A stretch of DNA of 64,000 nt from Candidatus Hadarchaeum sp. (GCA_020725055.1 DYFS01000001.1:275-64274), one strand, 5' to 3'. Shown: positions 12 to 22,185, numbered from the stretch's first letter. Notes: generated by a model from the letters alone, not told the origin. Numbers and translations are program-made.

Positions 12-542
12 TTACCCCGCTACCGTAGTAACTTTTGGCTCTGTGGGCTTTAAGGCTTTGCGCAGCCAACCGCCCAAAACCGCGCCCAACCCGACGACCA
101 CAACGATCAAAACCGCCCAGAGAAGCGTGGTCCCGCACAACGACAGGAGGAACTCGCCATGCCCAACTGGCCGGCCTACCTTCTTTGCGATCACGCCGAT
201 GATTTCCTCAAGACTATGCGTGAAAATATCGTGGCCTGCCGGGATGAAAAGGGGGTTTAGCGTGAGAAGTACTCCCGCCAGGCCACCAGCCCGCAGGTGC
301 ACCCCCCAGCCACTTACCTCACGGGAGAGCAGGTAGCCGGTGAGGATACCGCCAAAAAGGAAGGCGAGGATGCCAGCCCCCAACAAAACCCAGCACCCGA
401 TGCCGAAAAAGAAGCCGTAGAGCACCGGCCGCATGCAGCGCCGATTGAGCCTCCGGAGTAGCAAAAACAGGAGCATGCAGATGAGCGCGACCGAGAACGC
501 GGTGTACGCGGCGCGGAAGGTGAGTTCATCCATCGGATTCAC
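12..542 (-). CDS. hypothetical integral membrane protein
   Basis: 176-aa ORF with several hydrophobic helices (LICMLLFLLL, GILAFLFGGILTGYLL); no recognisable family. Confidence 0.35.
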   Translation of the reverse strand: MNPMDELTFRAAYTAFSVALICMLLFLLLRRLNRRCMRPVLYGFFFGIGCWVLLGAGILAFLFGGILTGYLLSREVSGWGVHLRAGGLAGVLLTLNPLFIPAGHDIFTHSLEEIIGVIAKKVGRPVGHGEFLLSLCGTTLLWAVLIVVVVGLGAVLGGWLRKALKPTEPKVTTVAG

Positions 543-611
543 TGTGTCCCAAGGGTTAAAACAACTTACGTTTTAGCAAAATTACTCATAGGAATATTTT
601 TAGTCGAAAAA

Positions 612-619
612 TATAAATA
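612..619 (+). promoter_or_regulatory. TATA-box-like element TATAAATA upstream of the hcy-synthase operon; GGAGGTG SD-like at 640-646
   Basis: AT-rich stretch 560-650 in GC-rich DNA; TATAAATA about 33 nt upstream of the GTG start at 652. Confidence 0.3.
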
Positions 620-651
620 GCGATGAAAACCCTTTACATCGAGGTGGGAGC

Positions 652-2160
652 GTGGTGACCAAGACTTACGAGGGGATTAACCAGCGCATCCGCGAGGGCG
701 AGGCGGTCGTCGTCACAGCTGAGGAGTTCGTTGAGATCGCGCGCGAGCGGGGCGCCAAGCGGGCCGCGAAGGAGGTCGACGTCGTCACCACAGGCACCTT
801 CGGGGCGATGTGCAGCTCGGGCGCCTTCTTGAACTTCGGGCATGCAGACCCGCCTATCAAGCTCGGTGGGGGGGAGATCTACCTGAACGACGTACCTGCT
901 TATACGGGGCTGGCCGCCGTTGACACGTACATCGGCGTGACCTCACTTTCGACCACCAAGGGCATGGAGTACGGAGGCGGGCACGTCATCGAAGACCTCG
1001 TGCGCGGCAAGGAAATCACGCTGCGAGGAAGCGGGTATGGCACCGACTGTTACCCACGCAAAGAGATAGAAACCACCATCACCATCCACGATCTAAACCA
1101 AGCGGTGCTGTGCAGCCCGCGGAACGCGTACCAGCGCTACAACGCAGCGACGAACTCACGCGATGAAACCCTCTTCACCTACATGGGCACGCTTCTGCCG
1201 AACTTCGGCAACGTCACCTTCTCCGGGGCGGGGGTCTTGAGCCCGCTTGGCAGGGATCCGAACTACGAGACCATCGGCGTTGGGGCTCGGATTTTCTTAG
1301 GGGGGGCGCAGGGCTACATCGGTTGGGAGGGCACCCAGCACAATCCCACCAAGGGCTTCGGCACGGTGCTTGTGATAGGCGACCTCAAGGAGATGGATCC
1401 GCGCTACCTGCGAGGCTGCACCATCCACCGCTACGGCACCTCGCTCTACATCGGCTTGGGCATCCCGATCCCGCTACTTAACGAGCGGATCGCAGAGGCG
1501 GCTGCGGTTGGTGAAGAGCAGATAAAGGTGAACCTGCTCGACTACGGCGCGCCCCGGCGGGATAGGCCGGTGGTGCGGGAGGTCACCTACGCGGAGCTCA
1601 GGTCGGGCAAGGTTGAGGTCCACGGGAGGGAGGTGCCGACCAGCCCCCTCAGCAGTTTCAAGCTCTCGCGCGAGGTAGCGCAGAAGCTGAAGGAGTGGAT
1701 CCAGCGCGGCGAGTTCTTCCTCAGCGCGCCCGTCGAGTTGCTATCTCGCGACTCCGCGTTCAAACCGATGAAGCAGATTGCAGAGGTGCCGCTCGTGAGG
1801 GAGATCATGACAAAACCTGTGATAACCGGACTGCCCGACGAACCGATCGCGCGTGCCGCTAAAATATTCGCCGAGCACAACTTTGACCACCTGCCCATCA
1901 CAGACAAGCAGGAAAAGCTCTTGGGTATTGTCACCTCTTGGGATGTCGCCATAGCCACCGGCACGAAGAAGAAGAAACTCTCAGAAATCATGACGAAGAA
2001 GGTGGTTGTCGCGAATGAGGACGAGCCGGTCGATGCCGTGGCGAGGAGGCTGCAGCAACATGGTATCTCCGGGCTGCCGGTTACAAACACAAAGGGCGAA
2101 GTCGTGGGGATAGTCACCACGGAAGATATTTCAAAACTTGTCGGGAGGCGAAGGAAATGA
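652..2160 (+). CDS. L-aspartate-semialdehyde sulfurtransferase / homocysteine biosynthesis protein (COG1900 domain + tandem CBS domains; MA1821/MJ0100 family)
   Basis: 502 aa. N-terminal DUF39/COG1900 region (TTGTFGAMCSSGAFLNFGH, GGGHVIEDL). C-terminal two CBS-like repeats (ITGLPDEPIARAAKIFAEHNFDHLPI; VVVANEDEPVDAVARRLQQHGISGLPV). Stop overlaps next gene start (ATGA at 2157-2160). Confidence 0.75.
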   Translation: MVTKTYEGINQRIREGEAVVVTAEEFVEIARERGAKRAAKEVDVVTTGTFGAMCSSGAFLNFGHADPPIKLGGGEIYLNDVPAYTGLAAVDTYIGVTSLSTTKGMEYGGGHVIEDLVRGKEITLRGSGYGTDCYPRKEIETTITIHDLNQAVLCSPRNAYQRYNAATNSRDETLFTYMGTLLPNFGNVTFSGAGVLSPLGRDPNYETIGVGARIFLGGAQGYIGWEGTQHNPTKGFGTVLVIGDLKEMDPRYLRGCTIHRYGTSLYIGLGIPIPLLNERIAEAAAVGEEQIKVNLLDYGAPRRDRPVVREVTYAELRSGKVEVHGREVPTSPLSSFKLSREVAQKLKEWIQRGEFFLSAPVELLSRDSAFKPMKQIAEVPLVREIMTKPVITGLPDEPIARAAKIFAEHNFDHLPITDKQEKLLGIVTSWDVAIATGTKKKKLSEIMTKKVVVANEDEPVDAVARRLQQHGISGLPVTNTKGEVVGIVTTEDISKLVGRRRK

Positions 2161-2558
2161 CGGCTAAGCTACTGCTGAGGTACTCGCCAGAGGCGCTGGA
2201 CAAGCCGATTTTGGCGAGGGTAATAAGGCAAACGAGTGCCGAGATAAATATCTTGCATGCCGAGCTCGACGCCACGAAGGGCGAAATCCTAGTAGGTGTC
2301 GAAGCCCCGCCAGCCGAGATTGAAAAATTGATGTACCTGCTCAAGAAAAACGGCATCGATGCAAAAAAACTCGAGCGGGCAGTCGAGCTCGACGAGAACA
2401 GCTGCTTAGATTGCGGTGCGTGCCTCTCGCTATGCCCGACGGGGGCGCTGCACACTAAAAAAGATTATTCGGTGAGGCTTGACGAGGACAAATGTATACT
2501 CTGCGAGGTGTGCATCCCGGCGTGCCCGGTGAGGGCGATAAAGATTACTAAATTTTGA
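2157..2558 (+). CDS. NIL-domain 2x[4Fe-4S] ferredoxin, partner of the hcy-synthase (MA1822/MJ0099 family)
   Basis: 133 aa. N-terminal NIL-type domain (SAEINILHAELD). C-terminal two CxxCxxCxxxCP motifs (CLDCGACLSLCP, CILCEVCIPACP). Translationally coupled to upstream gene. Confidence 0.75.
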   Translation: MTAKLLLRYSPEALDKPILARVIRQTSAEINILHAELDATKGEILVGVEAPPAEIEKLMYLLKKNGIDAKKLERAVELDENSCLDCGACLSLCPTGALHTKKDYSVRLDEDKCILCEVCIPACPVRAIKITKF

Positions 2559-2603
2559 CTTCAGCAACTCACCTTTTTATGGCGCCAAACGTGCAATTAC
2601 TTA

Positions 2604-3827
2604 GTGGTTGTGGGGTATACGATGCCAAAGATCCCAAAAGAAAAACTTGAAAAATATCTCCACTTGCATCGAGAGTTCACGGGAAAATTCATCAACCTCC
2701 ACCCGATCCAGCGGGGCGGCATCCTCACGGAAGCTGCGAGGAAAGCCATAGTCGAATTTGGAGACGGTTACTCGACGTGCGATTGGTGCCCACCGAAGAC
2801 GCCGAGGCTCGACATGATCGAGCGCCCCCCGATTGCCCAGTTCATGGCTGATCTCGCGACCTTCTTGGGTATGGATGTCGCACGGGTCGTGACCCGCTGC
2901 AGGGAGGCGAAATTCATAGCTTTCGCTATGCTCGGCAAACCGGGCGACACCGTGGTCGTCGACAGCCTAGCGCATTATTCAACGTATACGGCGGCGGAGT
3001 TGGCGGGGCTGAATGTAAAGGAGGTCCCCCACGGAGACTACCCAGAATTTAAAGTCGGCTTGAACGCCTACGCCGACAAGATAGAGGAAGTAAAAAAGGA
3101 AACAGGAAAGCTCCCGGCGGTAGTTGTTCTCACCCACGTCGACTACCTTTACGGCAATTTAAACGACGCTGCTGTCGTCGGCAAGATATGTAAAAAGTAC
3201 GGGGTGCCGTTCTTGCTCAACGCCGCGTACACTGCAGGCGTGATGCCGATCGACGGCAAAAAGCTGGGCGCAGATATCATCGTGAGCAGCGGGCACAAGA
3301 GCTGGGCTGCGAGCGCACCGACGGGCATCTTGGCGATGAAGGAAGATATTGCCGGCGATGTTCTCAAGCGGTCAAAAATCGTCGGGGACTTGAGCGGGCG
3401 CAAGTTCGCGGCGAAGGAGTACGCCCTGCTCGGCTGCACGGTCATGGGGGCGCCCCTCATCACCCTCATGGCATCTTTTCCGCATGTAGTGGAGCGAGTC
3501 GAGCACTGGCAGGAAGAGGTCGAAAAGGCGAGGTACTTGGTCAAGCTGATCGAGCGGATCGAGGGGACCCGGCAGCTCGGCATCAAGCCAAAACAGCACA
3601 CGTTGATCCACATGGAATCCGATGGGCTCCATAAGGTTTCTGAAACGCACAAGCGCAGGGGTTTCTTCCTGTACGATGAGCTTAGGGAGAGAAATATCGT
3701 GGGGATTCAAGCGGGCCTGACGAAGCACTTCAAGCTCAACACCTATGGCCTGAGTTTAAATCAAGTAAAAACCGTGGCGAAGGCATTCGAAGAGATAGCC
3801 AAAAAATACGGGTTAAAAGTTGGGTGA
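2604..3827 (+). CDS. pscS: O-phospho-L-seryl-tRNA(Cys):Cys-tRNA synthase SepCysS (PLP-dependent)
   Basis: 407 aa. N-terminus PKIPKEKLEKY..FINLHPIQRGGILTEAARKA..FGDGYSTCDWC is typical of SepCysS. PLP-lysine context SSGHKSWAASAPTG. Alternative start at ATG 2622 (MPKIP). Confidence 0.7.
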   Translation: MVVGYTMPKIPKEKLEKYLHLHREFTGKFINLHPIQRGGILTEAARKAIVEFGDGYSTCDWCPPKTPRLDMIERPPIAQFMADLATFLGMDVARVVTRCREAKFIAFAMLGKPGDTVVVDSLAHYSTYTAAELAGLNVKEVPHGDYPEFKVGLNAYADKIEEVKKETGKLPAVVVLTHVDYLYGNLNDAAVVGKICKKYGVPFLLNAAYTAGVMPIDGKKLGADIIVSSGHKSWAASAPTGILAMKEDIAGDVLKRSKIVGDLSGRKFAAKEYALLGCTVMGAPLITLMASFPHVVERVEHWQEEVEKARYLVKLIERIEGTRQLGIKPKQHTLIHMESDGLHKVSETHKRRGFFLYDELRERNIVGIQAGLTKHFKLNTYGLSLNQVKTVAKAFEEIAKKYGLKVG

Positions 3828-4575
3828 GCTGATGGCAAGGCGGCGCAGCCCTAGCGCGTTGAAGATAAGAAACCTGAGCGTTGAAATCGCCGGTAAAAAG
3901 GTGCTGGATGGGGTCGACCTAGAGGTGCTGAGGGGAGAGATCCACGTTCTGTTCGGTCCAAACGGGTCTGGAAAAACATCGCTGATGATGTCCATCTTGG
4001 GTTTTCCGAGCTACCGCATCCTATCGGGCGAAATTCTGCTTAATGGTACCGACATCACTAACATGTCGATAAACGAGCGCGTGAAACTTGGCATCGGCAT
4101 AGCTTTTCAAAGTTCCCCGACAATACGGGGCGTTAAATTGGGCGACGTCTTGCGCCACCTCGCCGGGAGTAAAATTGACGGGGCGAAGATGGCTGGGGCT
4201 GTTAACCTCGATGCGGAGTTTTTGAACAGGGATTTGAACGTTGGATTTTCTGGAGGCGAACTCAGGCGATCGGAGGTTTTGCAGGTACTCGTGCAGCGGC
4301 CGAGTTTCGCGATATTCGACGAGCCCGATTCTGGGGTGGATGTCGAGAACTTAGAGGTGGTCGGCGGCGCGATCAATAACTTGCTCAAGAAGCGGTCGGG
4401 GCTTTTGATAACGCACCAAGGCTACATCCTGCGGTATGTGGAGGCTGATAAAGCGCACGTGATGCTTAACGGGAGAATCGTCTGTTCTGGAATACCCACC
4501 AAGATTCTCAGCCAGATAATGAAAAGGGGCTACAAGTGGTGTGAAAAATGTCCAAAAGCAAGGAGACCGCACTAA
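3820..4575 (+). CDS. sufC: Fe-S cluster assembly ATPase SufC
   Basis: 251 aa. Walker A GPNGSGKTS, ABC signature FSGGELRRSEVLQ, Walker B/D-loop AIFDEPDSGVD, H-loop ITHQ. Overlaps SepCysS end by 8 nt. Confidence 0.85.
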   Translation: MGELMARRRSPSALKIRNLSVEIAGKKVLDGVDLEVLRGEIHVLFGPNGSGKTSLMMSILGFPSYRILSGEILLNGTDITNMSINERVKLGIGIAFQSSPTIRGVKLGDVLRHLAGSKIDGAKMAGAVNLDAEFLNRDLNVGFSGGELRRSEVLQVLVQRPSFAIFDEPDSGVDVENLEVVGGAINNLLKKRSGLLITHQGYILRYVEADKAHVMLNGRIVCSGIPTKILSQIMKRGYKWCEKCPKARRPH

Positions 4576-5771
4576 AGGCAAAGGGGAAGCCGGCTGCCCT
4601 CGGCCCCGATCTCGATGTTGGGAGATTCACGAGGGATGCTAAAACGTGGGGCTATTGTCCTGTCTCGTCCCTCCCCGAAGACATCGCTCGGAGATCGCTG
4701 GCCGTTGGTGTTAGGGCCGACGAGGGAGAGAGGGCCGGCACGTATTTCCAGATAGACCATTCAACAGTTTTTCAAAAAATTCAAAAAAAGTTTGAGGGAA
4801 AAACCGAGATAATGAGCACCAAAGACGCGCTTGAAAAATACGACTGGATGGAGGATTACTGGTGGAAAGTCGTCTCCGCTGATGCAGACAAATACACCGC
4901 CTTGGCCGAGCTGGAGTGGGACCGCGGCTATTTCATCAGGGCGCTCGAGGGGCAAAAAATCACGTTGCCGCTGCAGGCATGCCTTTTCATCTCGAAGGAT
5001 AACCTAGACCAAAACGTCCATAATGTTATAATCGCCGAGCCGAATTCGGAGATCCAAATAATAACGGGCTGCACCGTCCATCCAAACGTCCAGCGCGGGC
5101 TGCATGTTGGGATTTCCGAGTTTTTCATAAAAGAATGGGCAAAACTCACATTCACCATGATCCACAACTGGGCCCAAAATTTCGATGTCCGCCCACGAAC
5201 CGGGGCGCTCGTTGAGGATAACGCCACATTCGTGACTAACTACGTTTGCCTGAATCCTGTGAAGAGCCTCCAGATGTATCCAGTCGCTTATTGCAAGGGG
5301 GAAAATTCAAGGGCAAGATTTACCTCTATTTTATACGGGGCCGGGGATTCCTACCTAGATGTTGGCTCTAAAACAGTTCTCCAGGGAACTGGAAGCAGGG
5401 CAGAAGTCATCGCCCGCGCTATCGCTCTTGACCGCGCGCGGATCTATAGCCGCGGCCTTCTAGTCGGAGAGAAAGAGGATACTAAAGCGCACCTTGAGTG
5501 CAGGGGTCTTTTACTTTCAGATGATGCATTCATCCACGCGATTCCCGAACTTACCGCGAAGGTGCAGGGTACAGAGCTCTCACACGAAGCTGCGGTCGGC
5601 AAGATAGCAGAGGAACAAATCCAATACTTGATGGCAAGGGGATTTTCAGAGCTCGAAGCCCAGTCGCTGATCGTTAGGGGATTTATGGACGTGGGCATTC
5701 TTGGGCTGCCCAAAGCGTTAGAAACTGAGATCAAACGAATAGTCGATACGACGGCTGCCGCTGCTATTTAG
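4548..5771 (+). CDS. sufB: Fe-S cluster assembly scaffold SufB/SufD-family protein
   Basis: 407 aa. Length and position right after sufC (28-nt overlap) are typical of archaeal SufBD. Ends with TAG stop at 5769-5771. Confidence 0.75.
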   Translation: MSKSKETALKAKGKPAALGPDLDVGRFTRDAKTWGYCPVSSLPEDIARRSLAVGVRADEGERAGTYFQIDHSTVFQKIQKKFEGKTEIMSTKDALEKYDWMEDYWWKVVSADADKYTALAELEWDRGYFIRALEGQKITLPLQACLFISKDNLDQNVHNVIIAEPNSEIQIITGCTVHPNVQRGLHVGISEFFIKEWAKLTFTMIHNWAQNFDVRPRTGALVEDNATFVTNYVCLNPVKSLQMYPVAYCKGENSRARFTSILYGAGDSYLDVGSKTVLQGTGSRAEVIARAIALDRARIYSRGLLVGEKEDTKAHLECRGLLLSDDAFIHAIPELTAKVQGTELSHEAAVGKIAEEQIQYLMARGFSELEAQSLIVRGFMDVGILGLPKALETEIKRIVDTTAAAAI

Positions 5772-5776
5772 ATGGT

Positions 5777-5852
5777 TGGAGCCGGGGGCCGGATTTGAAC
5801 CGGCGAATAACGGGTCTGCAGCCCATCGCCTTAACCGCTAGGCTACCCCGGC
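5777..5852 (-). tRNA. tRNA-Cys (GCA), no intron, CCA encoded
   Basis: Minus-strand read GCCGGGGTAGCCTAGCGGTTAAGGCGATGGGCTGCAGACCCGTTATTCGCCGGTTCAAATCCGGCCCCCGGCTCCA. Cloverleaf complete. Anticodon loop CUGCAGA. Discriminator U73 (Cys identity element). Confidence 0.85.
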
Positions 5853-6064
5853 ACAACTCAACTTTGGGGCTTCAAAATTAAATACCTGTGCCTTTACCGC
5901 AACCTGCGGCCATCACGCTGACAGGACCACCTAAGCTTCACAGCACAATCGGTGCAATAAACGCAGCCGCATTTAGCGCACTCCGTCATACGCATGGTAA
6001 CCGGACGTCTGCCGCAAACAGTGCACATGTTGTATTTCTGTGCGGATAACAACACGCCCACACC

Positions 6065-6856
6065 TCACGCTCGCCCAAGCATTCGGATGGCTTCATCCGC
6101 TGCCTTGCGGCCGCTCAATAACATGCCTCCAAATATCGGACCCATGCGGGGCGACCCGAATACCGCGTTCGCTGCCATGCCCGCAACGATGAGGTTTGGA
6201 TAAATCTCCCGAGTATTGTTCAAAATTTCAGTTTCACCGACTGCCGCCCACATGGGTTTCTCCCCGACAACACCTCCAGTTTGGGTCGGGAACTTTGCCC
6301 TTGGTATCTTCCGCTGGACAATCCGCGCCACCTCTGAGTCATGCCCAGTTGCATCGATCACAACCTTCGCCTGGATGCTGACGGGGTCGACGTGCAAACG
6401 CGCCATCTCGACTGCCCCCCAATTAACAACGACGCCCGCTATCCTATCATTCTCCCGTATCATGACATCTTCAACACCTAATCCTACTACAACTTTTGCA
6501 CCCGCATCTATCGCAGCCGCTGTGCATTTCGATACGGTTTCAGCAGAATCTGCCACGTAGTAGCCATCGCTAGTCTGCTCCAGCCTGACGCCAACCTCAT
6601 CAAGAATCCCCTTCGCCGCGTCCTGAATCACTATGCGCGGAAAGAGGATGCCGCCGCCCCACATGCCCCCCCCAACATGAAGGTTGCGCTCGAAAACCGC
6701 GACTTTGACGCCAGCTTTCGCCAGGTAGCGAGCGGCGGTCACGCCCGCCGGCCCAGCTCCGGCAATTGCGACATCTAGATTAACCATGTCCAAAAAATCT
6801 TGAAGAAAACGCTCCACTACCGCAGCCGTGACCTTTGTGTCCTCAATTTTAGCCAT
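6065..6856 (-). CDS. thi4: thiamine thiazole synthase Thi4 (archaeal sulfide-dependent type)
   Basis: 263 aa from ATG at 6854-6856 (MAKIEDTKVT..). FAD dinucleotide fold DVAIAGAGPAGVTAARYLAKAGVKVAVFERN..GGGMWGGG. Longer ORF back to 6919 is probably N-terminal over-extension. Confidence 0.8.
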   Translation of the reverse strand: MAKIEDTKVTAAVVERFLQDFLDMVNLDVAIAGAGPAGVTAARYLAKAGVKVAVFERNLHVGGGMWGGGILFPRIVIQDAAKGILDEVGVRLEQTSDGYYVADSAETVSKCTAAAIDAGAKVVVGLGVEDVMIRENDRIAGVVVNWGAVEMARLHVDPVSIQAKVVIDATGHDSEVARIVQRKIPRAKFPTQTGGVVGEKPMWAAVGETEILNNTREIYPNLIVAGMAANAVFGSPRMGPIFGGMLLSGRKAADEAIRMLGRA

Positions 6857-6899
6857 GGTATCCCTTTGAATAGCTCTCGTGTTGTTCATAAAAGTTGTG

Positions 6900-7781
6900 C
6901 TAGGGTTTATTCGCGCCACCCATGCGATATCCGCGAGGATCTAGCTCTGCCCGTGTGTAACCGAACCTCTCCAAAACCGCGCAAATTTTGCCCTCAAGCT
7001 TTCTAGCTCTTGGCAACTCATTCTTTCCGACTTCCACTCTCGCAAAATCGCCGTGGTCGCGCACCCGCACGACGCGGAAACCGAGCGAGCGCAGGAACTC
7101 CTCGCCCCTAGCTATCCGTTGTAGCTTTCTTCGCGTGATTTTTTGACCAAACGGTACCCTCGATGCAAGACACGGGTTCGCTGGCTTGTCGGCGTTCGGC
7201 AGACCGAGCCGCACAGCGAGCTCCCTCACATCTTCCTTTGTCATCCCCGCGAGTGCGAGGGGGCTCAAAACGTTAAATTCTTCTACCGCACGCAACCCCG
7301 GTCGGAAATCCAAAAAATCATCACGATTTGTCCCGTCAAAGATCTTTTTGAAGCCGAGTTTTTCGCGGACATTATTGAGCTTTCTCAGAAGTTCGCTCTT
7401 GCAATAATAACATCGCTCGGCGGGGTTCTTTGTGAAGTTCTCGTCCTCGAGCTCATCCGTGTTTATGATTATGTGCTTGATTCCCACTTGCCCAGCAACT
7501 TTTTTTGCAACTACGATTTCTCCGGGGGGATATGTTGGGGAGATGGCCGTAACTGCAGCCACGTTGTCCCCCAGAACTTCTCGAGAAATGGCACAGACTA
7601 CCGATGAATCGACGCCGCCAGAGAGAGCTATCACAGCGCTTTCGCAGCCTTGGATTATTGACTTGAGGCGCGCGAGTTTTTTGTCAATCAAGCTACCACC
7701 GCTGCATTCTTTTATGTATTTCGCTAAATATTGGATTGTCGGAGCTGCTGATATGCCTGAATTGATCTCGGAACGCTTCAC
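6900..7781 (-). CDS. PP-loop ATP pyrophosphatase, LarE-like sulfur transferase family (TIGR00268)
   Basis: 293 aa. PP-loop SGGVDSS. Conserved CYYCK and PCLASR cysteine motifs typical of LarE/ThiI-like sulfur insertases. True start may be an internal TTG near 7692, which would remove the 29-nt divergent overlap with the next gene. Confidence 0.65.
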   Translation of the reverse strand: MKRSEINSGISAAPTIQYLAKYIKECSGGSLIDKKLARLKSIIQGCESAVIALSGGVDSSVVCAISREVLGDNVAAVTAISPTYPPGEIVVAKKVAGQVGIKHIIINTDELEDENFTKNPAERCYYCKSELLRKLNNVREKLGFKKIFDGTNRDDFLDFRPGLRAVEEFNVLSPLALAGMTKEDVRELAVRLGLPNADKPANPCLASRVPFGQKITRRKLQRIARGEEFLRSLGFRVVRVRDHGDFARVEVGKNELPRARKLEGKICAVLERFGYTRAELDPRGYRMGGANKP

Positions 7782-8493
7782 TTACAAAGAGACGGACGCG
7801 CTGATCAAAGCAGATAACCGAAGCGCCATCGAGGCGGCGAAGAAATCGTTGCTCGAACACCGCAACTCCCTCGAGCGCTACATCGTGCGCAACCCCATTT
7901 TTATGACAACCCTAGAACCGATTGAGGCCGATGCCGATGCACCGAGGGTTGCGGTGATGATGGCCGAGGCAGCTGCAACGGTTGGCGTTGGCCCCATGGC
8001 TGCAGTCGCTGGAACACTCGCCCAGCTCGCTGTCGAGGGTGCAGTCACCGCGGGGGCAAAAAACATCGTGGTCGAAAACGGCGGGGACATCTTCATTCAT
8101 GGAAATCGCCCGTACACCGTCGCAATCCACGCGGGTGGAAGCCCGCTCTCGAACAAGCTCGCTCTCGAGATAGATGCGGCCAGACTACCTCTTGCCGTTT
8201 GCACGAGCTCGGCGACGATTGGGCCTTCGCTGAGTTTTGGTGAGGCCGATGCGGTGACCGTGCTCGCAAAATCAGGGGCGCTGGCGGATGCTGCCTCTAC
8301 TGCAATTTGTAACGAAACGCGGGGGGGGCCAGAAGATGGAATCAAGGCTGGTCTGCGGCGTGCGACGGCAGTACGCGGTTTGGGCGCGGTCCTCATCATC
8401 TACAAAAAATATGTTGGCAGCTGTGGCGACATGCCAAAAATTGTAATCGCCGATAAGCTAAGCGAAGAACTCATCAAACGTGTTCAACTTTGA
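7753..8493 (+). CDS. putative UPF0280 family protein (ApbE-like superfamily, COG2122?)
   Basis: 246 aa from ATG 7753 (MPELISERF..). Gly/Ala-rich core GPMAAVAGTLAQLAVEGAVTAGAKNIVVENGGDIFIHG. Upstream part of the 353-aa track ORF lies antisense to the LarE-like gene and is spurious. Family assignment is from memory, not verifiable here. Confidence 0.5.
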   Translation: MPELISERFTYKETDALIKADNRSAIEAAKKSLLEHRNSLERYIVRNPIFMTTLEPIEADADAPRVAVMMAEAAATVGVGPMAAVAGTLAQLAVEGAVTAGAKNIVVENGGDIFIHGNRPYTVAIHAGGSPLSNKLALEIDAARLPLAVCTSSATIGPSLSFGEADAVTVLAKSGALADAASTAICNETRGGPEDGIKAGLRRATAVRGLGAVLIIYKKYVGSCGDMPKIVIADKLSEELIKRVQL

Positions 8494-8494
8494 G

Positions 8495-8587
8495 TGGTGG
8501 GCCCGGAGGGATTTGAACCCTCGACCTCCCGGTGTCTGCCAACTAGGCTATCAGCCGAGCGCGCTAGCCAAGCTGCGCCACGGGCCC
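8495..8587 (-). tRNA. tRNA-Ile (GAU) with 15-nt canonical intron (37/38), CCA encoded
   Basis: GGGCCCG TG GCGC AGCTTGGCTA GCGC G CUCGG CUGAUA [GCCTAGTTGGCAGAC] A CCGGG AGGUC GAGGG UUCAAAU CCCUC CGGGCCC A CCA. 93 nt. Confidence 0.7.
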
Positions 8588-8760: not shown

Positions 8761-9120
8761 TTATCGCCTTTTTTGATTCTTTTTAGCCAATTTGGAATCT
8801 TGCCTCCGCTGGCAAGATATAGAGCGTCTAACATTCCGAGAAATAACATGAAAAACGAAAAGTGTGAGGTAGCCGAGCGCAGGTAGCCCGCTCAGCGCCG
8901 AGAGGCGGTACGCGACCGCAGCCATCAAAGTCATCACGCAAATACCGACGCGTTGCCCGAAGTTTTTGACCGAGATTGAAAATGTGAGGAAAGAAATCAG
9001 AGTGATGATGAGGATGGGGAAGAAGTTTTTGAACGCGGCTGAGATTTTAGAGCGGTAGACGGTTACCCCCAAAGACAACCCGAGAGTAGTTTTCATCTGG
9101 GTAAGCGTGCTCCTCCACAT
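8761..9120 (-). CDS. hypothetical small membrane protein
   Basis: 119-aa ORF with 3 hydrophobic helices, in AT-richer DNA next to tRNA-Ile; no family recognised. Confidence 0.3.
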   Translation of the reverse strand: MWRSTLTQMKTTLGLSLGVTVYRSKISAAFKNFFPILIITLISFLTFSISVKNFGQRVGICVMTLMAAVAYRLSALSGLPALGYLTLFVFHVISRNVRRSISCQRRQDSKLAKKNQKRR

Positions 9121-9124
9121 ACAA

Positions 9125-9391
9125 TCAGAAGCCCTTTACACCCCAGCCCGCGACCTTCGACTTTGGATCGAGCCCGCTCTCCTCGTTATCAGACTCAAAC
9201 ACGAGCTGCGAAGTACCGCGCTGCTTGCCCTCAAGCTCGACAGTCAAGAAGTGCTCGTCTAATGGAAAACCCCTGAAATCGAAGGATCCCGCGTAAACGC
9301 CCTTTACCCGGTACTCTATGTAATCCTCGGTGGGGCGCTCCTCCCCCCTTATGAGCTCCATCCTCGTCGGAGTTCCCCTCAAAAATTCCAC
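9125..9391 (-). CDS. hypothetical protein
   Basis: 88-aa acidic ORF directly upstream of 8761-9120 on the same strand; no family recognised. Confidence 0.25.
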   Translation of the reverse strand: MEFLRGTPTRMELIRGEERPTEDYIEYRVKGVYAGSFDFRGFPLDEHFLTVELEGKQRGTSQLVFESDNEESGLDPKSKVAGWGVKGF

Positions 9392-11705: not shown

Positions 11706-11793
11706 TGGTGGACCGGGCGGGATTTGAACCCGCGCCCTCTCGCTGTTTCGGTTGCCATGCGAAGCGAGTGCGCTGCCGCTGCGCTACCGGCCC
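11706..11793 (-). tRNA. tRNA-Ala (CGC) with 13-nt canonical intron, CCA encoded
   Basis: GGGCCGG UA GCGC AGCGGCA GCGC A CUCGC UUCGCA [TGGCAACCGAAAC] A GCGAG AGGGC GCGGG UUCAAAU CCCGC CCGGUCC A CCA. G3:U70 Ala identity pair present. Confidence 0.7.
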
Positions 11794-14031: not shown

Positions 14032-16719
14032 GTGAAACCCATGGAGGTAACTAAGGATTATGACCCACTCGAGGTCGAGCCAAGGTGGCAGCAAAGGTGG
14101 GGAGAGCTGGACATATATCGATTCAGGCGTGAAGACACAAAAACGCCGACTTACGTGATCGATACCCCTCCCCCATACCCATCGGGCGAGTTTCACATGG
14201 GTACCGCGCTGAACTGGACGTACTTCGACATCGCCGCACGCTACAAGCGCATGCGAGGATTTAACGTGTTATTTCCACAAGGCTGGGACTGTCATGGTTT
14301 GCCGACGGAGGTTCAGGTCGAAAAGCGCTACGGCATCCGAAAGGGCGACCTCCCACCCGAGCGATTCCGCGAGCTCTGCATCAAGTTAACCGAGGAGAAC
14401 ATCGCCCACATGCGGGAGGAAATAAAGTCACTCGGTTTCTCCATCGACTGGTCGACCGAGTACCGGACGATGGATCCGAGCTACTACAGCAAAACCCAGC
14501 TTTCGTTCGTGCGACTTTACAAAAAAGGCCTCATCTACCGAGGCGAACACCCTGTCAACTGGTGCCCCCGCTGCGAGACGGCGATAGCTGATGCAGAGGT
14601 GGAGTACGACGAGCGGGAAAGCTCCCTCAGCTACATCAAGTTCAAGATACATGGGGAAGATGATCTCCTAACAATCGCCACCACCCGTCCCGAGTACCTT
14701 CACGCCTGTGTCGTCGTAGCCGTTCACCCGGATGATGAACGTTATAAAAAATACGTCGGAAAGAAACTCGAGGTGCCTCTTTTCAACCAAGTCGTTGGTA
14801 TCATCGAGGATCACGAAGTCGACCCGCAGTTCGGCACGGGTGTGGTGATGATATGCACGTACGGTGACAAGACTGACGTGCGCTGGGTCAAGCGCCACAA
14901 GCTGCCGGTGGTGAAAGCCATCGATGAGCGAGGGCGCATGACCGAGGCCGCCGGAAAGTACGTGGGACTCACCCTCGTTGAATGCAAGGGACAGGTGGTT
15001 GAGGACCTGCGCGAGGCCGGGCTTCTCGAAAAACAGGAGAGACTCGTGCAGAGCGTCGGTACGTGCTGGCGGTGTAAAACGCCCGTTGAAATCCTGACGA
15101 AAAAACAGTGGTTCATGCGCGTGCTGGATTTGAAAGATGAGGTAATCGAAGGTGCAAAGCGCGCGCGCTGGGTTCCTGATTACATGCGAGATCGCCTGAT
15201 AACCTGGGCCGAATCCATGGACTGGGACTGGGTGATCTCGAGGCAGAGGATATTCGCAACACCGATCCCGGTCTGGTACTGCCCGAGGTGCAATTCGCCG
15301 GTGATAGCGGAGGAGGACCAGCTTCCAGTCAACCCAGTAATGGATAAGCCGCCCGTCGACAAGTGCCAGAAGTGTGGCAACGACGAATTCATACCGGAAA
15401 CCGATGTTCTCGACACGTGGATGGACAGCTCGCTCACGATACTCGCCCACGCCGGCTGGCCTGAGCTGGACAAGCGGCTCTTCCCCGCTGACCTCCAGCC
15501 CAACGGAACCGATATCATCAGGACGTGGGATTATTACCTGCTCGTTCGCAGCCTTGCGCTCGCTGGTGAGGCCCCGTACAAGACCGTGCTCATCAACGGC
15601 ATGGTCTTCGGCGAGGACGGCCGCAAGATGTCGAAGTCGCTCGGCAACTACGTCGATACCATGAAGGCGCGTGAAAGGTACGGCGTGGATGCTCTCAGAC
15701 AGTGGGCGGCGATAGGTGCTTCAACAGGTTCAGACGTGCCTTTCGCTTGGAAGGATGTCGAATTCGGCTACAAGTTCATGCGCAAGTTTTGGAACGCCGC
15801 GCGGTTTGCGGGCTCGCACTTCCGAGGTTTCGACGTCGCTGGCGCAGATCTGGCCGAGCTTGGGTTCAGGCCAACCGACCGGTGGATCCTAAGTAGGCTG
15901 AACCGCCTGGTGAACGAGGTCACCGCGTACCTCGAGGACTTTCAGTTTAACCGCGCGCTGATCGCGATTCAAACCTTCATATGGCACGAGTTCTGCGATA
16001 TGTACATCGAGGAGGCCAAGTACCGCCTCTACGGTGGCGACCCAACCGCAGATGCCGCGCGCTACATGCTTTACCACACCATCCTCACCGCGACGAAGCT
16101 GCTCGCGCCGTTCATACCGCACTTCTCCGAGGAGGTTTACCGCACATATTTCGCGGAAAACTACCCATACCCAAGCGTCCACGTCTCGGACTGGCCGGTT
16201 GCAGACGAGCAACTCATAGACGAGGCCGCGGAGGGGCTCGGTGAACTCACAAACTTGGTGGTTGGCGCAATCCGCCAGTTCAAGTCCGAGCGCAGGATGG
16301 CCCTAAGCGCTGAGCTGCCAGCGGTTGAGGTGTACGCGGCAGACAGAAAGAACGCGCGGCTGCTGGCCCAAGTTGGTGAAGACATCCGCGGCACCATAAG
16401 GGTGAGGGAGTTCAACGTGGTGACCGAGAAGCCGAAAGTCGTTGAACGCATCCTAGCGGTGGAGCCGAACCTCGCGAGGCTCGGGCCCCGTCTGCGCGGT
16501 GATACAAGGCTAGTCGTTCGGGCCCTCGAGGAGGCGGATCCAGAGGCAGTCGCCCAGGAGCTGGCAGGGGGGAGCGTGACCCTCGCCGTTAGCGGGAAGA
16601 GGTTCAAGCTCGATCAAGAGGATGTGAGAATCATAAAAGAAACATCGAGCGCTGGACGTAAGGTTGAGGTTATAGATATCACGGTTCCTGCGCTGGCAAT
16701 CTTGATCACGATGCCCTAG
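14032..16719 (+). CDS. valS: valyl-tRNA synthetase (class I, editing domain)
   Basis: 895 aa. PPPYPSGEFHMGTA (HIGH-type), KMSKSLGN. Length fits archaeal ValRS rather than IleRS or LeuRS. Ends with TAG stop. Confidence 0.75.
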   Translation: MKPMEVTKDYDPLEVEPRWQQRWGELDIYRFRREDTKTPTYVIDTPPPYPSGEFHMGTALNWTYFDIAARYKRMRGFNVLFPQGWDCHGLPTEVQVEKRYGIRKGDLPPERFRELCIKLTEENIAHMREEIKSLGFSIDWSTEYRTMDPSYYSKTQLSFVRLYKKGLIYRGEHPVNWCPRCETAIADAEVEYDERESSLSYIKFKIHGEDDLLTIATTRPEYLHACVVVAVHPDDERYKKYVGKKLEVPLFNQVVGIIEDHEVDPQFGTGVVMICTYGDKTDVRWVKRHKLPVVKAIDERGRMTEAAGKYVGLTLVECKGQVVEDLREAGLLEKQERLVQSVGTCWRCKTPVEILTKKQWFMRVLDLKDEVIEGAKRARWVPDYMRDRLITWAESMDWDWVISRQRIFATPIPVWYCPRCNSPVIAEEDQLPVNPVMDKPPVDKCQKCGNDEFIPETDVLDTWMDSSLTILAHAGWPELDKRLFPADLQPNGTDIIRTWDYYLLVRSLALAGEAPYKTVLINGMVFGEDGRKMSKSLGNYVDTMKARERYGVDALRQWAAIGASTGSDVPFAWKDVEFGYKFMRKFWNAARFAGSHFRGFDVAGADLAELGFRPTDRWILSRLNRLVNEVTAYLEDFQFNRALIAIQTFIWHEFCDMYIEEAKYRLYGGDPTADAARYMLYHTILTATKLLAPFIPHFSEEVYRTYFAENYPYPSVHVSDWPVADEQLIDEAAEGLGELTNLVVGAIRQFKSERRMALSAELPAVEVYAADRKNARLLAQVGEDIRGTIRVREFNVVTEKPKVVERILAVEPNLARLGPRLRGDTRLVVRALEEADPEAVAQELAGGSVTLAVSGKRFKLDQEDVRIIKETSSAGRKVEVIDITVPALAILITMP

Positions 16720-19000: not shown

Positions 19001-20260
19001 TCAAGTGCCCATCCGCCAAGATTTCATGTATCTGATTTGCTCCCAAGTTGGCCTTTCGAGTTCCACACCGATTGACTTGAGCTTGAGCTCGGCCACCCTT
19101 CGATCAATCTCTGGCGGCACGTCGTAGACCCAGTTTTCCAGTTCCCCCCTATGCCTCGCAAGGTACTCGACGCTGAGTGCCTGCAACGCGAAGCTCATGT
19201 CCATTATTTCCATCGGGTGTCCGAGTGAACGCCTGCCCGCGAGGTTAACCAAGCGCCCCTCCGCGAGCAGGTGAATCCGCCTACCATCCCTGAGCTGGAA
19301 CTCCTCGACATCCTCAAGCACCTCCCTGCGCTTGGTCGCGAGCCTCGCCAGCCCCTCGATATCGATTTCCACGTTGAAGTGGCCCGCGTTGCACAAGATC
19401 GCGCCATCCTTCATCCGCCGAATGTGCTCCCCGCGGATGGCGTTGATGTTGCCGGTAGCAGTTATAAAAATATCGCCGACGCGGGCGGCATCGTTCATCC
19501 TCGCGACCCTGAATCCATCCATCACCGCTTCCAGCGCCTTAATCGGGTCAGTTTCGACGACGGTCACGATTGCCCCAAGCCCCCTCACCCGCGAGGCGAT
19601 CCCGCGGCCGACGAATCCATAGCCGACAACAACCACATCCTTGCCAGCTACCAGGGTGTTCGTGATGCCCATTATCGCCTGCAGCGTCGACTCGGCCGTG
19701 CCGAAGCGGTTGTCGAACAGGCGTTTTGCTGGAGAGTCGTTTACCGCAATCACCGGGAATTTGAGGGCCCCCTCACTCGCCATCCGCCTCAGCCGGTTGA
19801 CCCCGGTGGTCGTCTCCTCGGACGCTCCCCGAATGCTCTTGAGAAGCTCCGTGCGTTTGGTATGGGTGAGAAATATGAGGTCTGCGCCATCATCTATCAA
19901 GATATCCGGTTTGTGGTCGAGTACGCGGTTGAGGTTGGAGTAGTACTCACGCGTCGTCTCCCCTCGCCACGCGTAGACGTTTATGCCATCCTTCGCGAGG
20001 GCAGCCGCTACGTCGTCCTTCGTGGACAGCGGATTGCAGCTTGTTATCGCCACCTCGGCACCACTAGCCGTAAGCGTTCGCGCGAGTGCTGCTGTCTTCG
20101 CCTCGACGTGCAGCGCCGCCCCCACTGTCAGCCCTTTGAACGGCTCCGTGCGTGCGAACTCCTTGCGAACTGCCGCGAGCACCGGCATGTGCCGCTCGAC
20201 CCACTCGATGGCGCGCTTGCCTTGGGGCGCGAGCTTGATGTCTTTGACCTTGTAAGTCAT
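19001..20260 (-). CDS. ahcY: adenosylhomocysteinase family protein (SAHH, or S-inosylhomocysteine hydrolase in archaeal pathway)
   Basis: 419 aa. NAD Rossmann VVVGYGFVGRGIASRVRGLGA. SAHH core motifs (HVEAKTAALARTL, SCNPLSTKDDVAAAL). 4-nt overlap with upstream deaminase gene. Confidence 0.85.
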   Translation of the reverse strand: MTYKVKDIKLAPQGKRAIEWVERHMPVLAAVRKEFARTEPFKGLTVGAALHVEAKTAALARTLTASGAEVAITSCNPLSTKDDVAAALAKDGINVYAWRGETTREYYSNLNRVLDHKPDILIDDGADLIFLTHTKRTELLKSIRGASEETTTGVNRLRRMASEGALKFPVIAVNDSPAKRLFDNRFGTAESTLQAIMGITNTLVAGKDVVVVGYGFVGRGIASRVRGLGAIVTVVETDPIKALEAVMDGFRVARMNDAARVGDIFITATGNINAIRGEHIRRMKDGAILCNAGHFNVEIDIEGLARLATKRREVLEDVEEFQLRDGRRIHLLAEGRLVNLAGRRSLGHPMEIMDMSFALQALSVEYLARHRGELENWVYDVPPEIDRRVAELKLKSIGVELERPTWEQIRYMKSWRMGT

Positions 20261-21567
20261 TTAGCGGCCCTCCACTCTGTTATTAAATCATCTGACGTTC
20301 TCTGCGCGCGCTCTAAAACTTTGTCTTCATCAAGCGTTAGCACCCTGCGCCCCCGCATCAAAATTTTTCCATCTGCGATTGTTGTATTGACATCGCTGCC
20401 CACCGCGCTGTAGACAAGATGAGAGGTCACATTATGCAACGGCGCGAGATGGGGCTTTTTGAGACCAACGAGGATGATATCTGCCTTTTTATTCGCTTCA
20501 AGCGATCCGATTTTATCTTGGAGACCAAGAGCAATTGCGCCGTTTATTGTCGCCATCTCGAGAACCGATTGCGCTGGCATGACGGTGGGATCAAATTTAT
20601 GGACCTTGTTGAGCAGTGCGGCAAATTTCATCTCTTTGAACATGTCGAGAGAGTTATTTGAAGCTGCTCCATCGGTGCCAAGCGCTACTGGGATACCGAC
20701 CTTTAGCATCTCGGGCACGGGCGATACCCCGCACGCAATTTTCATGTTACTTACTGGATTGTGGACTGGCTTGACCCCTCTTGTGCGTATGGTTGTAATC
20801 TCTTCTCGAGTCAGGTGGACACAGTGTGCTGCCAATACTTCGGGCCCCAGGAATCTGATTGAATCCAAGTGTTCAACTGGGCGCTTGCCATACCTTTTAG
20901 TTATCTCCTCAACTTCCCACTTGGTCTCGGCAATGTGGGTGTGAATCCCGACCTTGTACTTTTTTGCTAACTCCTTCACTTGCGACAAGCACTCGGGTGA
21001 GCATGTGTACGGGGCATGTGGGCCAAACATGGTCAAAATTCGACCGTCTGCTATGCCGTGGCAAGTTTTGACCAGTTTTTCCCCTGCTTTGAGTTCAGAC
21101 TCTCGCTTTTTGATGTCGCCCTTTTCGATAATGCCATAAGATAACACTCCCCTAATGCCAGATCGTTCGACGGCTTCGGCAACGTTTTCCATAAAGAAAT
21201 ATTGGTCGGCGAAACACGTAGCCCCTGATTTTATCATCTCCAAACAGCCCAGCAAAGCGCCTGCGTATACGCGTTCACCTGTTAGGTTTTTCTCCAACGG
21301 CCAAATCTTGGTTTCGAGCCACGGCTTTAATTCCATATCATCTGCAACACCACGTAACAAGGTCATTGATAGGTGAGTATGTGCGTTGACGAGACCCGGT
21401 AAAACCACCTTGCCTCGGGCATCGATTACAACATCGGCTTTTTCTTTGACGTCCTTGCCGACCGCGATGATTTTGTCTCCCTCGATTGCCACCGAGCCGC
21501 GCTCAAAAATGCGGCGTTTGGGATCCATTGTAATTACATATCCGTCTTTGATGACGACATCCACCAA
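20257..21567 (-). CDS. mtaD: amidohydrolase, 5-methylthioadenosine/S-adenosylhomocysteine (or 5'-deoxyadenosine) deaminase MtaD/DadD family
   Basis: 436 aa. LPGLVNAHTHLSMTLLRG metal-binding HxH motif plus downstream His/Asp ligands typical of the MtaD/TRZ-ATZ family. Confidence 0.75.
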   Translation of the reverse strand: MVDVVIKDGYVITMDPKRRIFERGSVAIEGDKIIAVGKDVKEKADVVIDARGKVVLPGLVNAHTHLSMTLLRGVADDMELKPWLETKIWPLEKNLTGERVYAGALLGCLEMIKSGATCFADQYFFMENVAEAVERSGIRGVLSYGIIEKGDIKKRESELKAGEKLVKTCHGIADGRILTMFGPHAPYTCSPECLSQVKELAKKYKVGIHTHIAETKWEVEEITKRYGKRPVEHLDSIRFLGPEVLAAHCVHLTREEITTIRTRGVKPVHNPVSNMKIACGVSPVPEMLKVGIPVALGTDGAASNNSLDMFKEMKFAALLNKVHKFDPTVMPAQSVLEMATINGAIALGLQDKIGSLEANKKADIILVGLKKPHLAPLHNVTSHLVYSAVGSDVNTTIADGKILMRGRRVLTLDEDKVLERAQRTSDDLITEWRAAK

Positions 21568-21576
21568 CTTTCCACC

Positions 21577-22089: not shown

Positions 22090-22147
22090 ATTTTCCCCCT
22101 AATTACTAAAAGAAAGCGCTCTTAATAAAGCTGAGAACTAGGTTGAC

Positions 22148-22155
22148 TTTTAAAT
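22148..22155 (+). promoter_or_regulatory. TATA-box-like TTTTAAAT upstream of metG
   Basis: 31-38 nt upstream of ATG 22186, in an AT-rich intergenic region. Confidence 0.35.
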
Positions 22156-22185
22156 CTCAACTACCTTAAAGAAGAAGGGTAAAAC

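Follow-up and report, generated by a model that had tools for sequence, protein, structure and literature searches.

A stretch of 64,000 nucleotides from Candidatus Hadarchaeum sp. (GCA_020725055.1 DYFS01000001.1:275-64274), referred to here as the window, carries a row of five co-directional genes at 652-5771 in its open reading frame (ORF) map. They encode the two subunits of L-aspartate-semialdehyde sulfurtransferase (hereafter L-ASST), namely HcyBio and a NIL-domain ferredoxin (NIL-ferredoxin), followed by the O-phosphoseryl-tRNA:Cys-tRNA synthase SepCysS and the Fe-S scaffold proteins SufC and SufB; a tRNA-Cys gene converges on the end of the row. An initial annotation, made from the sequence alone, had proposed these identities, and hidden Markov model searches of Pfam and NCBIfam agree with it for all five genes. 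The host is a Hadarchaeales archaeon and not a classical methanogen; among named relatives, the best matches to its SepCysS come from Hadesarchaea/Hadarchaeales metagenome-assembled genomes (79-87% identity), and an archaeal rRNA operon is present in the window. The JGI metagenome contig Ga0246235_100167 matches the window.

The packing of the row is operon-like, as had been claimed. HcyBio (652-2160) and the NIL-ferredoxin gene (2157-2558) overlap by 4 nt, while SufC (ending at 4575) and SufB (starting at 4548, stop codon 5769-5771) overlap by 28 nt. The SepCysS reading frame opens with a GTG at 2604; the start supported by homologues is the ATG at 2622 (MPKIPKE...), which gives a spacer of 63 nt after the NIL-ferredoxin gene, and the stop codon is at 3825-3827. 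SufC starts either at a TTG at 3820, overlapping SepCysS by 8 nt, or, more likely, at an ATG at 3832, which leaves a gap of 4 nt and is preceded by a Shine-Dalgarno-like GGGTGA within the 3' end of SepCysS. Promoter and terminator signals were read by eye, the host being archaeal. An A/T-rich TATA-box-like element, AAAAATATAAATA (607-619, plus strand), is a putative operon promoter some 38 nt upstream of where HcyBio starts; it is followed by a Shine-Dalgarno-like motif, GAGGTGGGAG (641-650, plus strand). The spacer between the NIL-ferredoxin gene and SepCysS contains a T5 run at 2574-2578 and A/T-rich sequence. The five genes are probably co-transcribed. Three further samples yielded contigs (L002, L166, and L168) with the same five-gene order at 79-100% protein identity; thus, the row is not an assembly artefact, and a chimera can be rejected.

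The first two genes belong to families of a known pathway of homocysteine synthesis. HcyBio (plus strand) matches PF01837 along the whole profile (1-349 of 349) with 478.3 bits against a gathering score of 26.2 (E=1.6e-143), which bears out its proposed membership of COG1900. A C-terminal CBS pair (two CBS stretches at 380-497) is present and there is no inserted ferredoxin domain; this is the architecture of the large subunit of L-ASST (PMC12068725), and the protein is of the COG1900a, MA1821/MJ0100 type. An alternative assignment, as the MMP16/COG1900d coenzyme M synthase, was rejected on the presence of the CBS pair and on the score of 155.5 bits with TIGR03287 (methan_mark_16), for which the cut-off is 363.95. 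All homologues (28/28) keep residues C54 and C133, which were matched by position and motif, without direct alignment, to the near-universally conserved Cys54 (essential) and Cys131 of MA1821. The product of the second gene (plus strand) is the L-ASST small subunit of MA1822 type, with an N-terminal NIL domain (PF09383, 34.9 bits against 24) and two Fer4 [4Fe-4S] domains, and in relatives its gene always lies directly 3' of HcyBio. Homocysteine is the product that L-ASST forms from aspartate semialdehyde and reduced sulfur; the CBS and NIL domains are thought to be regulatory (PMC12068725, PMC5764234). The MA1821, MA1822, and MA1715 families of Methanosarcina acetivorans are the same three that were shown genetically in Desulfovibrio (PMC5764234, PMC12068725). 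The window resembles the M. acetivorans set in having all three families, the same domain architecture, the essential Cys54 with a second Cys, and an association with SepCysS. It differs in its Hadarchaeales host, in joining L-ASST to SepCysS and SufCB in one row, and in the location of the MA1715-type gene (COG2122), which lies 5 kb downstream beyond a block of minus-strand genes.

The third gene (2622-3827, plus strand) encodes SepCysS, as the initial annotation had held in preference to SepSecS or a cysteine desulfurase. It scores 520 bits with TIGR02539 (cut-off 365.25) and 571 with NF006810 (cut-off 301), and its N-terminus is only about 16 aa longer than the TIGR02539 model. Assignment of this 407-aa protein to the other two clades was rejected: the SepSecS model TIGR03531 gives 15.9 bits against a cut-off of 224.85, and the best desulfurase model gives 52 bits. 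Its identity to annotated archaeal SepCysS proteins is 54-95%, and its alignment with M. jannaschii SepCysS (PDB 3wkr, E=1.8e-120) runs from end to end. The lysine that binds pyridoxal phosphate (PLP) and three cysteines, the equivalents of M. jannaschii Cys64, Cys67, and Cys272, are in register with 3wkr (DGYSxCDxC, SGHKS, LGCT); these residues, K232, C59, C62, and C278, are invariant in 90/90 homologues. SepCysS converts O-phosphoseryl-tRNA-Cys (Sep-tRNA-Cys) to Cys-tRNA-Cys via a PLP-bound dehydroalanyl intermediate (PMC5424206). It is reported to be an Fe-S protein, with a role of the three conserved cysteines implied in cluster and persulfide formation (Mukai 2017, PMC5424206).

Which partners of SepCysS are encoded nearby? 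Neither SepCysE nor a split SepCysSn precedes the gene, because the 63-nt spacer is too short for an ORF; the earlier observation that no SepCysE-like ORF lies between the genes thus stands. In this respect the locus differs from the SepRS-SepCysS-SepCysE transsulfursome of class I methanogens. The 64-kb window contains no gene for the O-phosphoseryl-tRNA synthetase SepRS (the one ORF of matching size, 603 aa at 22186-23997, encodes the methionyl-tRNA synthetase MetRS), and none for CysRS, SepCysE, ThiF, MoaD, or a cysteine desulfurase. SepRS is reported to be common in Hadesarchaea (PMC5424206).

The last two genes encode an ABC-type ATPase, SufC/SmsC (3832-4575, or from the TTG at 3820; plus strand), and a SufB/SmsB-type scaffold subunit with a SUFBD core (4548-5771, plus strand). 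TIGR01978 is the best-scoring family for SufC, at 207.4 bits, which is below the cut-off of 212.8; the protein matches PDB SufC 2d2e with E=5.8e-51 and MJ0035 SmsC with 119 bits. SufB scores 150.9 bits with PF01458, its nearest solved structure is PDB 4dn7 (E=3.6e-108), and it matches MJ0034 with 74 bits. The best NCBIfam model for SufB is that of SmsB, NF052511 (an 'exception' model), at 229.8 against a cut-off of 650, and TIGR01980 gives 190 against 346. Residues C145, C175, and C318 of SufB are invariant in 76/76 homologues. SufC carries a C-terminal triad of cysteines (C222 and C241-x-x-C244 in the 251-aa numbering), which is kept in 67-73 of 76 homologues. Its WCEKC motif aligns with the cluster ligands C239-G-K-C242 of M. 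jannaschii SmsC, a hallmark of SMS-type SmsC proteins (PMC12192291), and the third cysteine (RIVCSG), also in the C-terminal region, is six alignment columns from C218 of the M. jannaschii protein.

Apart from the SufC-SufB pair, no SufD, SufS, SufE, SufA, or SufU is encoded in the window. The locus is thus not a bacterial SUF system (SufBC2D with SufSE), lacking within the window both a SufD paralogue and a SufS/SufE donor; on its sequence features it is the minimal archaeal type, SMS (SUF-like minimal system). SmsCB assembles [4Fe-4S] clusters with sulfide and not cysteine as the source of sulfur, and the cluster is borne on the C-terminal cysteines of SmsC (PMC12192291). Like M. jannaschii MJ0035/MJ0034 (PMC12192291) and the systems of other archaea (PMC12442378), the pair consists of two genes without SufD, SufS, SufE, SufA, or SufU. 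The ATPase has a C-terminal CxxC at the position of the cluster ligands, and the absence of a nearby desulfurase is consistent with the use of sulfide. There are also differences from the M. jannaschii system. SufB of the window is the long, 407-aa form near PDB 4dn7 and not the 316-aa form of MJ0034, the third SufC cysteine is displaced as described, the NCBIfam SmsB and SufC cut-offs are unreached, and the pair sits inside an amino-acid biosynthesis operon.

The tRNA-Cys(GCA) gene (5777-5852, minus strand) was found with ARAGORN and Rfam (67 bits); its fold is the canonical cloverleaf, and it has G37 and a U73 discriminator. The GCA anticodon, G37, and U73 are what we take, from studies of M. 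jannaschii tRNA-Cys, to be the identity elements of a SepRS/SepCysS substrate. The gene is convergent with SufB, as first described, and its genomically encoded CCA end lies 5 nt from the SufB stop codon, where 6 nt had been given. An A/T-rich, TATA-like stretch at 5873-5886, about 21-34 nt upstream, appears to be its own promoter element. It is also the sole tRNA-Cys gene in the window, as had been claimed. A second candidate at 11706-11793 (minus strand; called by ARAGORN as 'tRNA-???' with anticodon 'cgca') was rejected, being a tRNA-Ala(CGC) that has G3:U70 and is interrupted by an intron of 13 nt at the canonical 37/38 site.

The initial annotation was right about the five genes but ended the locus too early, since a sulfur-related island runs past tRNA-Cys to 8493. 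It includes a Thi4-family thiazole synthase (6065-6856, ORF to 6919; minus strand), with 277.6 bits for PF01946 and 319 bits, against 148, for TIGR00292, the 'sulfide-dependent ADP-thiazole synthase'. It is of the type without the conserved active-site cysteine; its single cysteine is not conserved. The next gene encodes a LarE-like PP-loop ATP-dependent sulfur transferase (6900-7691, ORF to 7781; minus strand; TIGR00268, 295.9 bits against 150), in which C124, C127, and C204 (CxxC + C) are invariant in 6/6 sequences. This three-cysteine pattern presumably marks the cluster-dependent type of LarE, a reading that we regard as probable only. The island ends with a probable COG2122/UPF0280 ApbE-like protein of MA1715 type (7753-8493, plus strand). 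Sulfur-handling families thus account for nine of the ten consecutive ORFs at 652-8493. Because of this density, and because most of the linkages recur in related genomes, the cluster exceeds what chance would give. The tenth ORF is a putative 55-aa zinc-ribbon-like sequence between Thi4 and tRNA-Cys (5894-6061, minus strand), which has eight cysteines in CxxC-type pairs and may not be a gene; it is not called by JGI, has no Pfam or NCBIfam match, and beyond identical contigs shows only weak similarity (E>=0.003).

The COG2122 assignment depends on PRK04334 models that are matched at full length and slightly below cut-off (NF003324, 248.8 against 275; NF003321, 238.8 against 262), together with PF02424 (ApbE), 26.2 against 25.6. 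Compared along its full length, the protein has 41% identity to the copy that lies within the operon of the relative L011, and such in-operon copies likewise fall just below the cut-offs. Residue C150 is invariant in 33/33 sequences. In the window the gene is displaced from its usual place directly after the NIL-ferredoxin gene; its product and the in-operon copies match the same PRK04334 models with a slightly different best sub-model, which raises the question of whether they are paralogues. The homocysteine/sulfide-assimilation set has COG2122 (MA1715) as its third member (PMC5764234, PMC12068725). According to PMC5764234, Rauch and colleagues used comparative genomics to connect COG2122 with the DUF39 pathway, and Rauch proposed a possible role with SepCysS as well.

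Associations of Thi4 have also been described: it clusters with LarE, HcyBio, and ThiS/ThiF genes, and DUF6775 is generally found beside it (bioRxiv 10.1101/2025.09.23.678117). Our locus is similar in having Thi4 near LarE-like and HcyBio-type genes, and the relatives of the window are similar in having DUF6775, ThiI-like, and ThiS/ThiF genes beside Thi4. In contrast, Thi4 of the window lacks the conserved active-site cysteine, so it is not of the preprint's 'suicide' class, and its gene lies between the LarE-like one and the small Cys-rich ORF, DUF6775 being absent from the window. DUF6775, a probable metallopeptidase, is seen beside Thi4 in L003 (2725-3660, minus strand), L020, L030, L073, and L102.

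How do these genes lie in other archaea? More than 160 related loci were compared, including 80 anchored on SepCysS (one genome per species) and 80 anchored on SufB (metagenome contigs). Within 2 kb of SepCysS, a ThiF-type E1 activating enzyme is encoded in 46/80 loci, COG2122 and NIL-ferredoxin in 29/80 each, and SufB in 2/80. In the SufB-anchored set, SepCysS is found within 6 kb in 5/80 loci, and about 70/80 are without it over that distance. The typical order in Hadarchaeales is HcyBio, NIL-ferredoxin, COG2122, a SAMP1/MoaD-like ubiquitin-like protein (Ubl) with a C-terminal GG, a ThiF/MoeB-type E1, and SepCysS; the genes often seen just upstream are those for Thi4, a ThiI-like PP-loop protein, DUF6775, and tRNA-Cys. 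Compared with this typical row (L011, L027), the window has orthologues of HcyBio, NIL-ferredoxin, and SepCysS at 66-80% identity in the same order and orientation. It differs by having no Ubl or E1 in 64 kb, COG2122 elsewhere, and SufCB appended. Examples of the Ubl and E1 genes are found at 8974-9255 and 9292-9993 of L011, at 7193-8221 of L003, where they are fused, and in L033-L064, L017/19/24, L077, L080, and L171. Ubl and E1 genes are also seen beside SepCysS in Methanomethylicia, Archaeoglobi, an Asgard genome, and Methanococcales. The linkage suggests that SepCysS and/or L-ASST may receive sulfur from a protein thiocarboxylate. The searchable literature, subscription papers lying outside its scope, holds no mention of SepCysS together with ThiF or MoeB. 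Likewise, the text of the Mukai 2017 supplement, figure S2 falling outside this check, does not mention ThiF, MoeB, MoaD, SufB, or COG1900.

Other lineages show further arrangements. About 25 Methanomethylicia loci have tRNA-Cys on the strand of SepCysS, about 190 nt upstream, with E1 divergent, and a Methanococcales contig has the order ThiF-MoaE-COG2122...SepCysS. Several Hadarchaeales (L027, L095, L097, and L102) hold SufCB among tRNA-Cys, ThiI-like, Thi4, LarE, and Asd genes without SepCysS adjoining. Thus, L027 has SufC-SufB...tRNA-Cys(-)-ThiI-like-Thi4(-)-HcyBio-NIL-ferredoxin-COG2122-Ubl/E1-SepCysS, and L102 has SufC-SufB-tRNA-Cys(-)-ThiI-like-DUF6775(-)-Thi4(-)-LarE(-), while in L095 and L097 a minus-strand membrane protein gene precedes SufC-SufB and Asd is nearby. 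Since L027 and L102, for example, hold the convergent SufB/tRNA-Cys pair, this pair is older than the SepCysS-SufC junction. In Hadarchaeales the sulfur gene set has been repeatedly reshuffled yet kept together.

In the SufB-anchored set, the order SepCysS-SufC-SufB is confined to the sublineage of the window (L086, L087, and L115, to which the genome L003 can be added). The junction DNA between SepCysS and SufC is alignable among the window, L115, L166-168, L003, and L086/87, which argues for a single origin. A second group (L004, L117, and L118) has the order SufC-SufB-SepCysS or a convergent one. In Methanococcus voltae (L170, JANUCR010000007.1, 6001-10664), where the genes were located via locus tags in PMC8516115, the order is SepCysS(+), FAD-binding protein(-), SufB(-), SufC(-), with 1.5 kb between SepCysS and the convergent SufCB genes.

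Close relatives differ in what accompanies SepCysS. L166 and L168 (SepCysS 95% identical) have the same five-gene row as the window, and L003, L086, and L087 (87-89%) have HcyBio-NIL-ferredoxin-COG2122-Ubl::E1-SepCysS-SufC-SufB. In L169 (91%), HcyBio and NIL-ferredoxin are followed by a SufS-family cysteine desulfurase (3510-4715; TIGR01979, 479.7 against 475.1 bits) and SepCysS; SufCB is absent from the locus, and an intron-containing tRNA-Cys(-), a LAGLIDADG gene, and Thi4(-) come after SepCysS. The tRNA-Cys(GCA) of L169 (6533-6660, minus strand), missed by ARAGORN in bacterial mode, is interrupted after position 37 by an intron of about 20 nt, and the LAGLIDADG homing-endonuclease-like gene (6645-7370) immediately adjoins it. 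In L166 (5344-5873) all that is left of tRNA-Cys beyond SufB is a 15-nt 3' remnant (TGGAGCCGGGGGCC...), and the DNA that comes next is unrelated; a 30-nt repeat, CAGGGAGTTCCCACTAGGTAGCGTTGAAAC, occurs in it twice, 65 nt apart, which resembles the start of a CRISPR array. The remnant suggests integration or recombination at the 3' end of the tRNA gene, which would make this end a recombination hot spot. A further contig, L167 (212-1975), encodes a SepCysS protein identical to that of L166 with no HcyBio or NIL-ferredoxin called upstream; these were found by tblastn only in pieces (470 aa and 84 aa), pointing to a frameshifted pseudogene or an assembly error.

What appears new in the locus is the coupling of SepCysS to SmsCB and the loss of Ubl/E1; the ingredients and their association are already known. 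Homocysteine genes co-occur with SepCysS (Mukai 2017, PMC5424206), and in Hadesarchaea and MSBL1 the genes of clade VII SepCysS associate with tRNA-Cys and 'a few sulfur metabolism genes' (PMC5424206). The proposal of a sulfide-based locus is strengthened by COG2122, the cysteine-less Thi4, and the SMS-type SufCB, but the locus is not unique in associating homocysteine genes, SepCysS, and tRNA-Cys. In the absence of a full-length SepCysE it resembles the clade VII loci of MSBL1/Hadesarchaea and methanogens (PMC5424206), a likeness that rests on locus features and not on phylogeny. It differs from them in that no tRNA-Thr-ED gene was seen in the window and in that SufC and SufB, which the text of PMC5424206 does not mention, directly follow SepCysS. 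A SepCysS-SufCB operon is undescribed in the searchable literature (subscription papers excepted), and papers that name both make no claim of such a link.

Why should a cluster scaffold be joined to these biosynthetic genes? We consider it reasonably probable that the row is a lineage-specific compaction of a sulfur-assimilation neighbourhood found throughout Hadarchaeales, in which the scaffold and its Fe-S clients are co-expressed in a sulfide-fed regulon. Each gene would most likely keep the established role of its family. HcyBio-CBS and NIL-ferredoxin would make homocysteine from aspartate semialdehyde and reduced sulfur, SepCysS would convert Sep-tRNA-Cys to Cys-tRNA-Cys, and SufC/SufB, as the organism's minimal SMS-type scaffold, would build [4Fe-4S] clusters from iron and sulfide. 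Rearrangement may have gathered the genes into one co-directional, partly translationally coupled row, whose NIL-ferredoxin and SepCysS, and probably the three-cysteine LarE-like enzyme, would be clients of the co-expressed scaffold. Because these three proteins are Fe-S dependent or have Fe-S-type cysteine patterns, co-expression of scaffold and clients is the most economical rationale. Both the client relationship and sulfide as the common source of sulfur are what we infer from these features.

Three points weigh against this reading. The T5 run and the A/T-rich sequence between the NIL-ferredoxin gene and SepCysS could end or restart transcription, so the row may comprise two transcription units and not one. 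The genome, of which one contig is seen here, may hold more than this copy of SufCB. Finally, proximity of SepCysS and SufCB arose at least three times in differing orientations (in the clade of the window, in L004/L117/L118, and in M. voltae L170), which hints at something beyond generic co-regulation.

A neutral origin is possible, if fairly unlikely: recombination, in a region made rearrangement-prone by its tRNA gene, would have put SepCysS beside SufCB without functional meaning, and the row would be made up of two or three independent transcription units. The T5 run is compatible with this, as are the gene orders that differ among relatives at 90-95% SepCysS identity (L166, L169) and at 87% (L003), the tRNA-Cys remnant with its CRISPR-like repeats in L166, and the LAGLIDADG gene beside tRNA-Cys in L169. 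However, in every permutation the sulfur genes are the same and stay together, an argument for selection on proximity, and the 4-nt spacing and the overlaps at SepCysS/SufC/SufB imply co-translation. Furthermore, the chance expectation for genomes of about 1.5 Mb and a distance of up to 2 kb is about 0.2 cases in 80 genomes, compared with two independent cases observed, in addition to M. voltae.

Might the Suf proteins instead supply sulfur to SepCysS, as the initial annotation suggested? SmsCB would then be a dedicated relay to SepCysS, and perhaps to L-ASST, replacing the Ubl/E1/COG2122 module of the relatives. We regard this as distinctly unlikely, and the same holds for its detailed form, in which the PLP-bound dehydroalanyl-tRNA intermediate would receive sulfide, or sulfur derived from a cluster, directly from SmsCB. 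The idea draws on the gap of just 4 nt between SepCysS and SufC, with the Shine-Dalgarno-like motif inside the 3' end of SepCysS, and on the clade of the window, which has no Ubl or E1 in 64 kb, a displaced COG2122, and SmsCB directly downstream of SepCysS. It also accords with the variable occupancy of the position adjoining SepCysS (COG2122, Ubl, and E1 in most close relatives, a SufS-family desulfurase in L169) and with the independent recurrence of SepCysS-SufCB proximity in L004/L117/L118 and M. voltae. Against it, comparative support is slight, with SufB near SepCysS in 2/80 loci compared with 46/80 for E1 and 29/80 for COG2122, and the great majority of SufB loci (about 70/80) lack SepCysS within 6 kb. 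SmsCB is also no simple substitute for the Ubl/E1/COG2122 module, because L003, L086, and L087 retain a Ubl::E1 fusion and COG2122 alongside SmsCB. All published functions found for SmsCB are in Fe-S cluster assembly or transfer (PMC12192291, PMC13066941). A dedicated relay is unneeded once SepCysS is recognised as an Fe-S client; the report that SepCysS is itself an Fe-S protein (Mukai 2017) gives a simpler reason for its co-expression with the scaffold.

Finally, it is highly improbable that the SepCysS homologue is a PLP-dependent sulfur transferase for Fe-S assembly, standing in for SufS and not serving tRNA-dependent cysteine synthesis: it is a member of the same superfamily (fold-type I/class V), occupies a SufS-like position relative to SufCB as in bacterial suf operons, and has no SepRS within 64 kb, but it scores far above the SepCysS equivalog cut-off with desulfurase models at or below 52 bits, shows 54-95% identity to annotated archaeal SepCysS proteins, is linked to tRNA-Cys here and, co-directionally, in about 25 Methanomethylicia loci, and comes from a group in which SepRS is reported to be common (PMC5424206).

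Taken alone, the window mainly presents, in unusually compact form, a methanogen-type gene set for probably sulfide-fed synthesis of cysteine, homocysteine, and Fe-S clusters in a non-methanogenic subsurface archaeon. It also extends the SMS system into a putative amino-acid biosynthesis operon, and it overturns no current view. The in vivo sulfur donor of SepCysS and of the COG1900 homocysteine enzyme has long been sought, and the comparative pattern gives concrete candidates. The frame running from HcyBio and NIL-ferredoxin to SepCysS carries Ubl, E1, and COG2122, or SufS, or SmsCB, or combinations of these, and as such amounts to a natural experiment. It is tempting to speculate that the frame contains a swappable 'sulfur-donor slot' beside SepCysS, filled mostly by Ubl and E1 (with COG2122), by SufS in one relative, and by SmsCB alone in the lineage of the window; we consider this improbable. 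If it were true, the sulfur donor for tRNA-dependent cysteine synthesis would depend on lineage, being a protein thiocarboxylate in most, and SmsCB in the lineage of the window would double as a sulfide-delivery device for SepCysS and L-ASST.

Upstream of the row, a 176-aa multi-pass membrane protein is encoded at 12-542 (minus strand). It has no match in Pfam or NCBIfam; its homologues adjoin SufCB, Asd, or HcyBio in L003, L095, L097, L166, and L169, and it is a candidate for sulfur or iron handling.

Elsewhere in the window there are housekeeping genes, including those for MetRS, S-adenosylhomocysteine hydrolase, FtsZ, and topoisomerase VI, and ilv/leu genes; the ORF at 14032-16719 encodes a class-I synthetase of the Ile/Val/Leu type. 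A loose methionine-related neighbourhood comprises S-adenosylhomocysteine hydrolase (19001-20260), an amidohydrolase of the size of a methylthioadenosine/S-adenosylhomocysteine deaminase (20257-21567), and MetRS (22186-23997); this group (19001-23997) lies 13-18 kb from the homocysteine genes. An Rfam tRNA match of 106 nt at 40580-40685 (minus strand, 41.8 bits), for which there is no ARAGORN call, probably contains an intron. The calls for tRNA-Ile (8495-8587) and tRNA-Gly (41193-41284) are over-long, which is consistent with introns.

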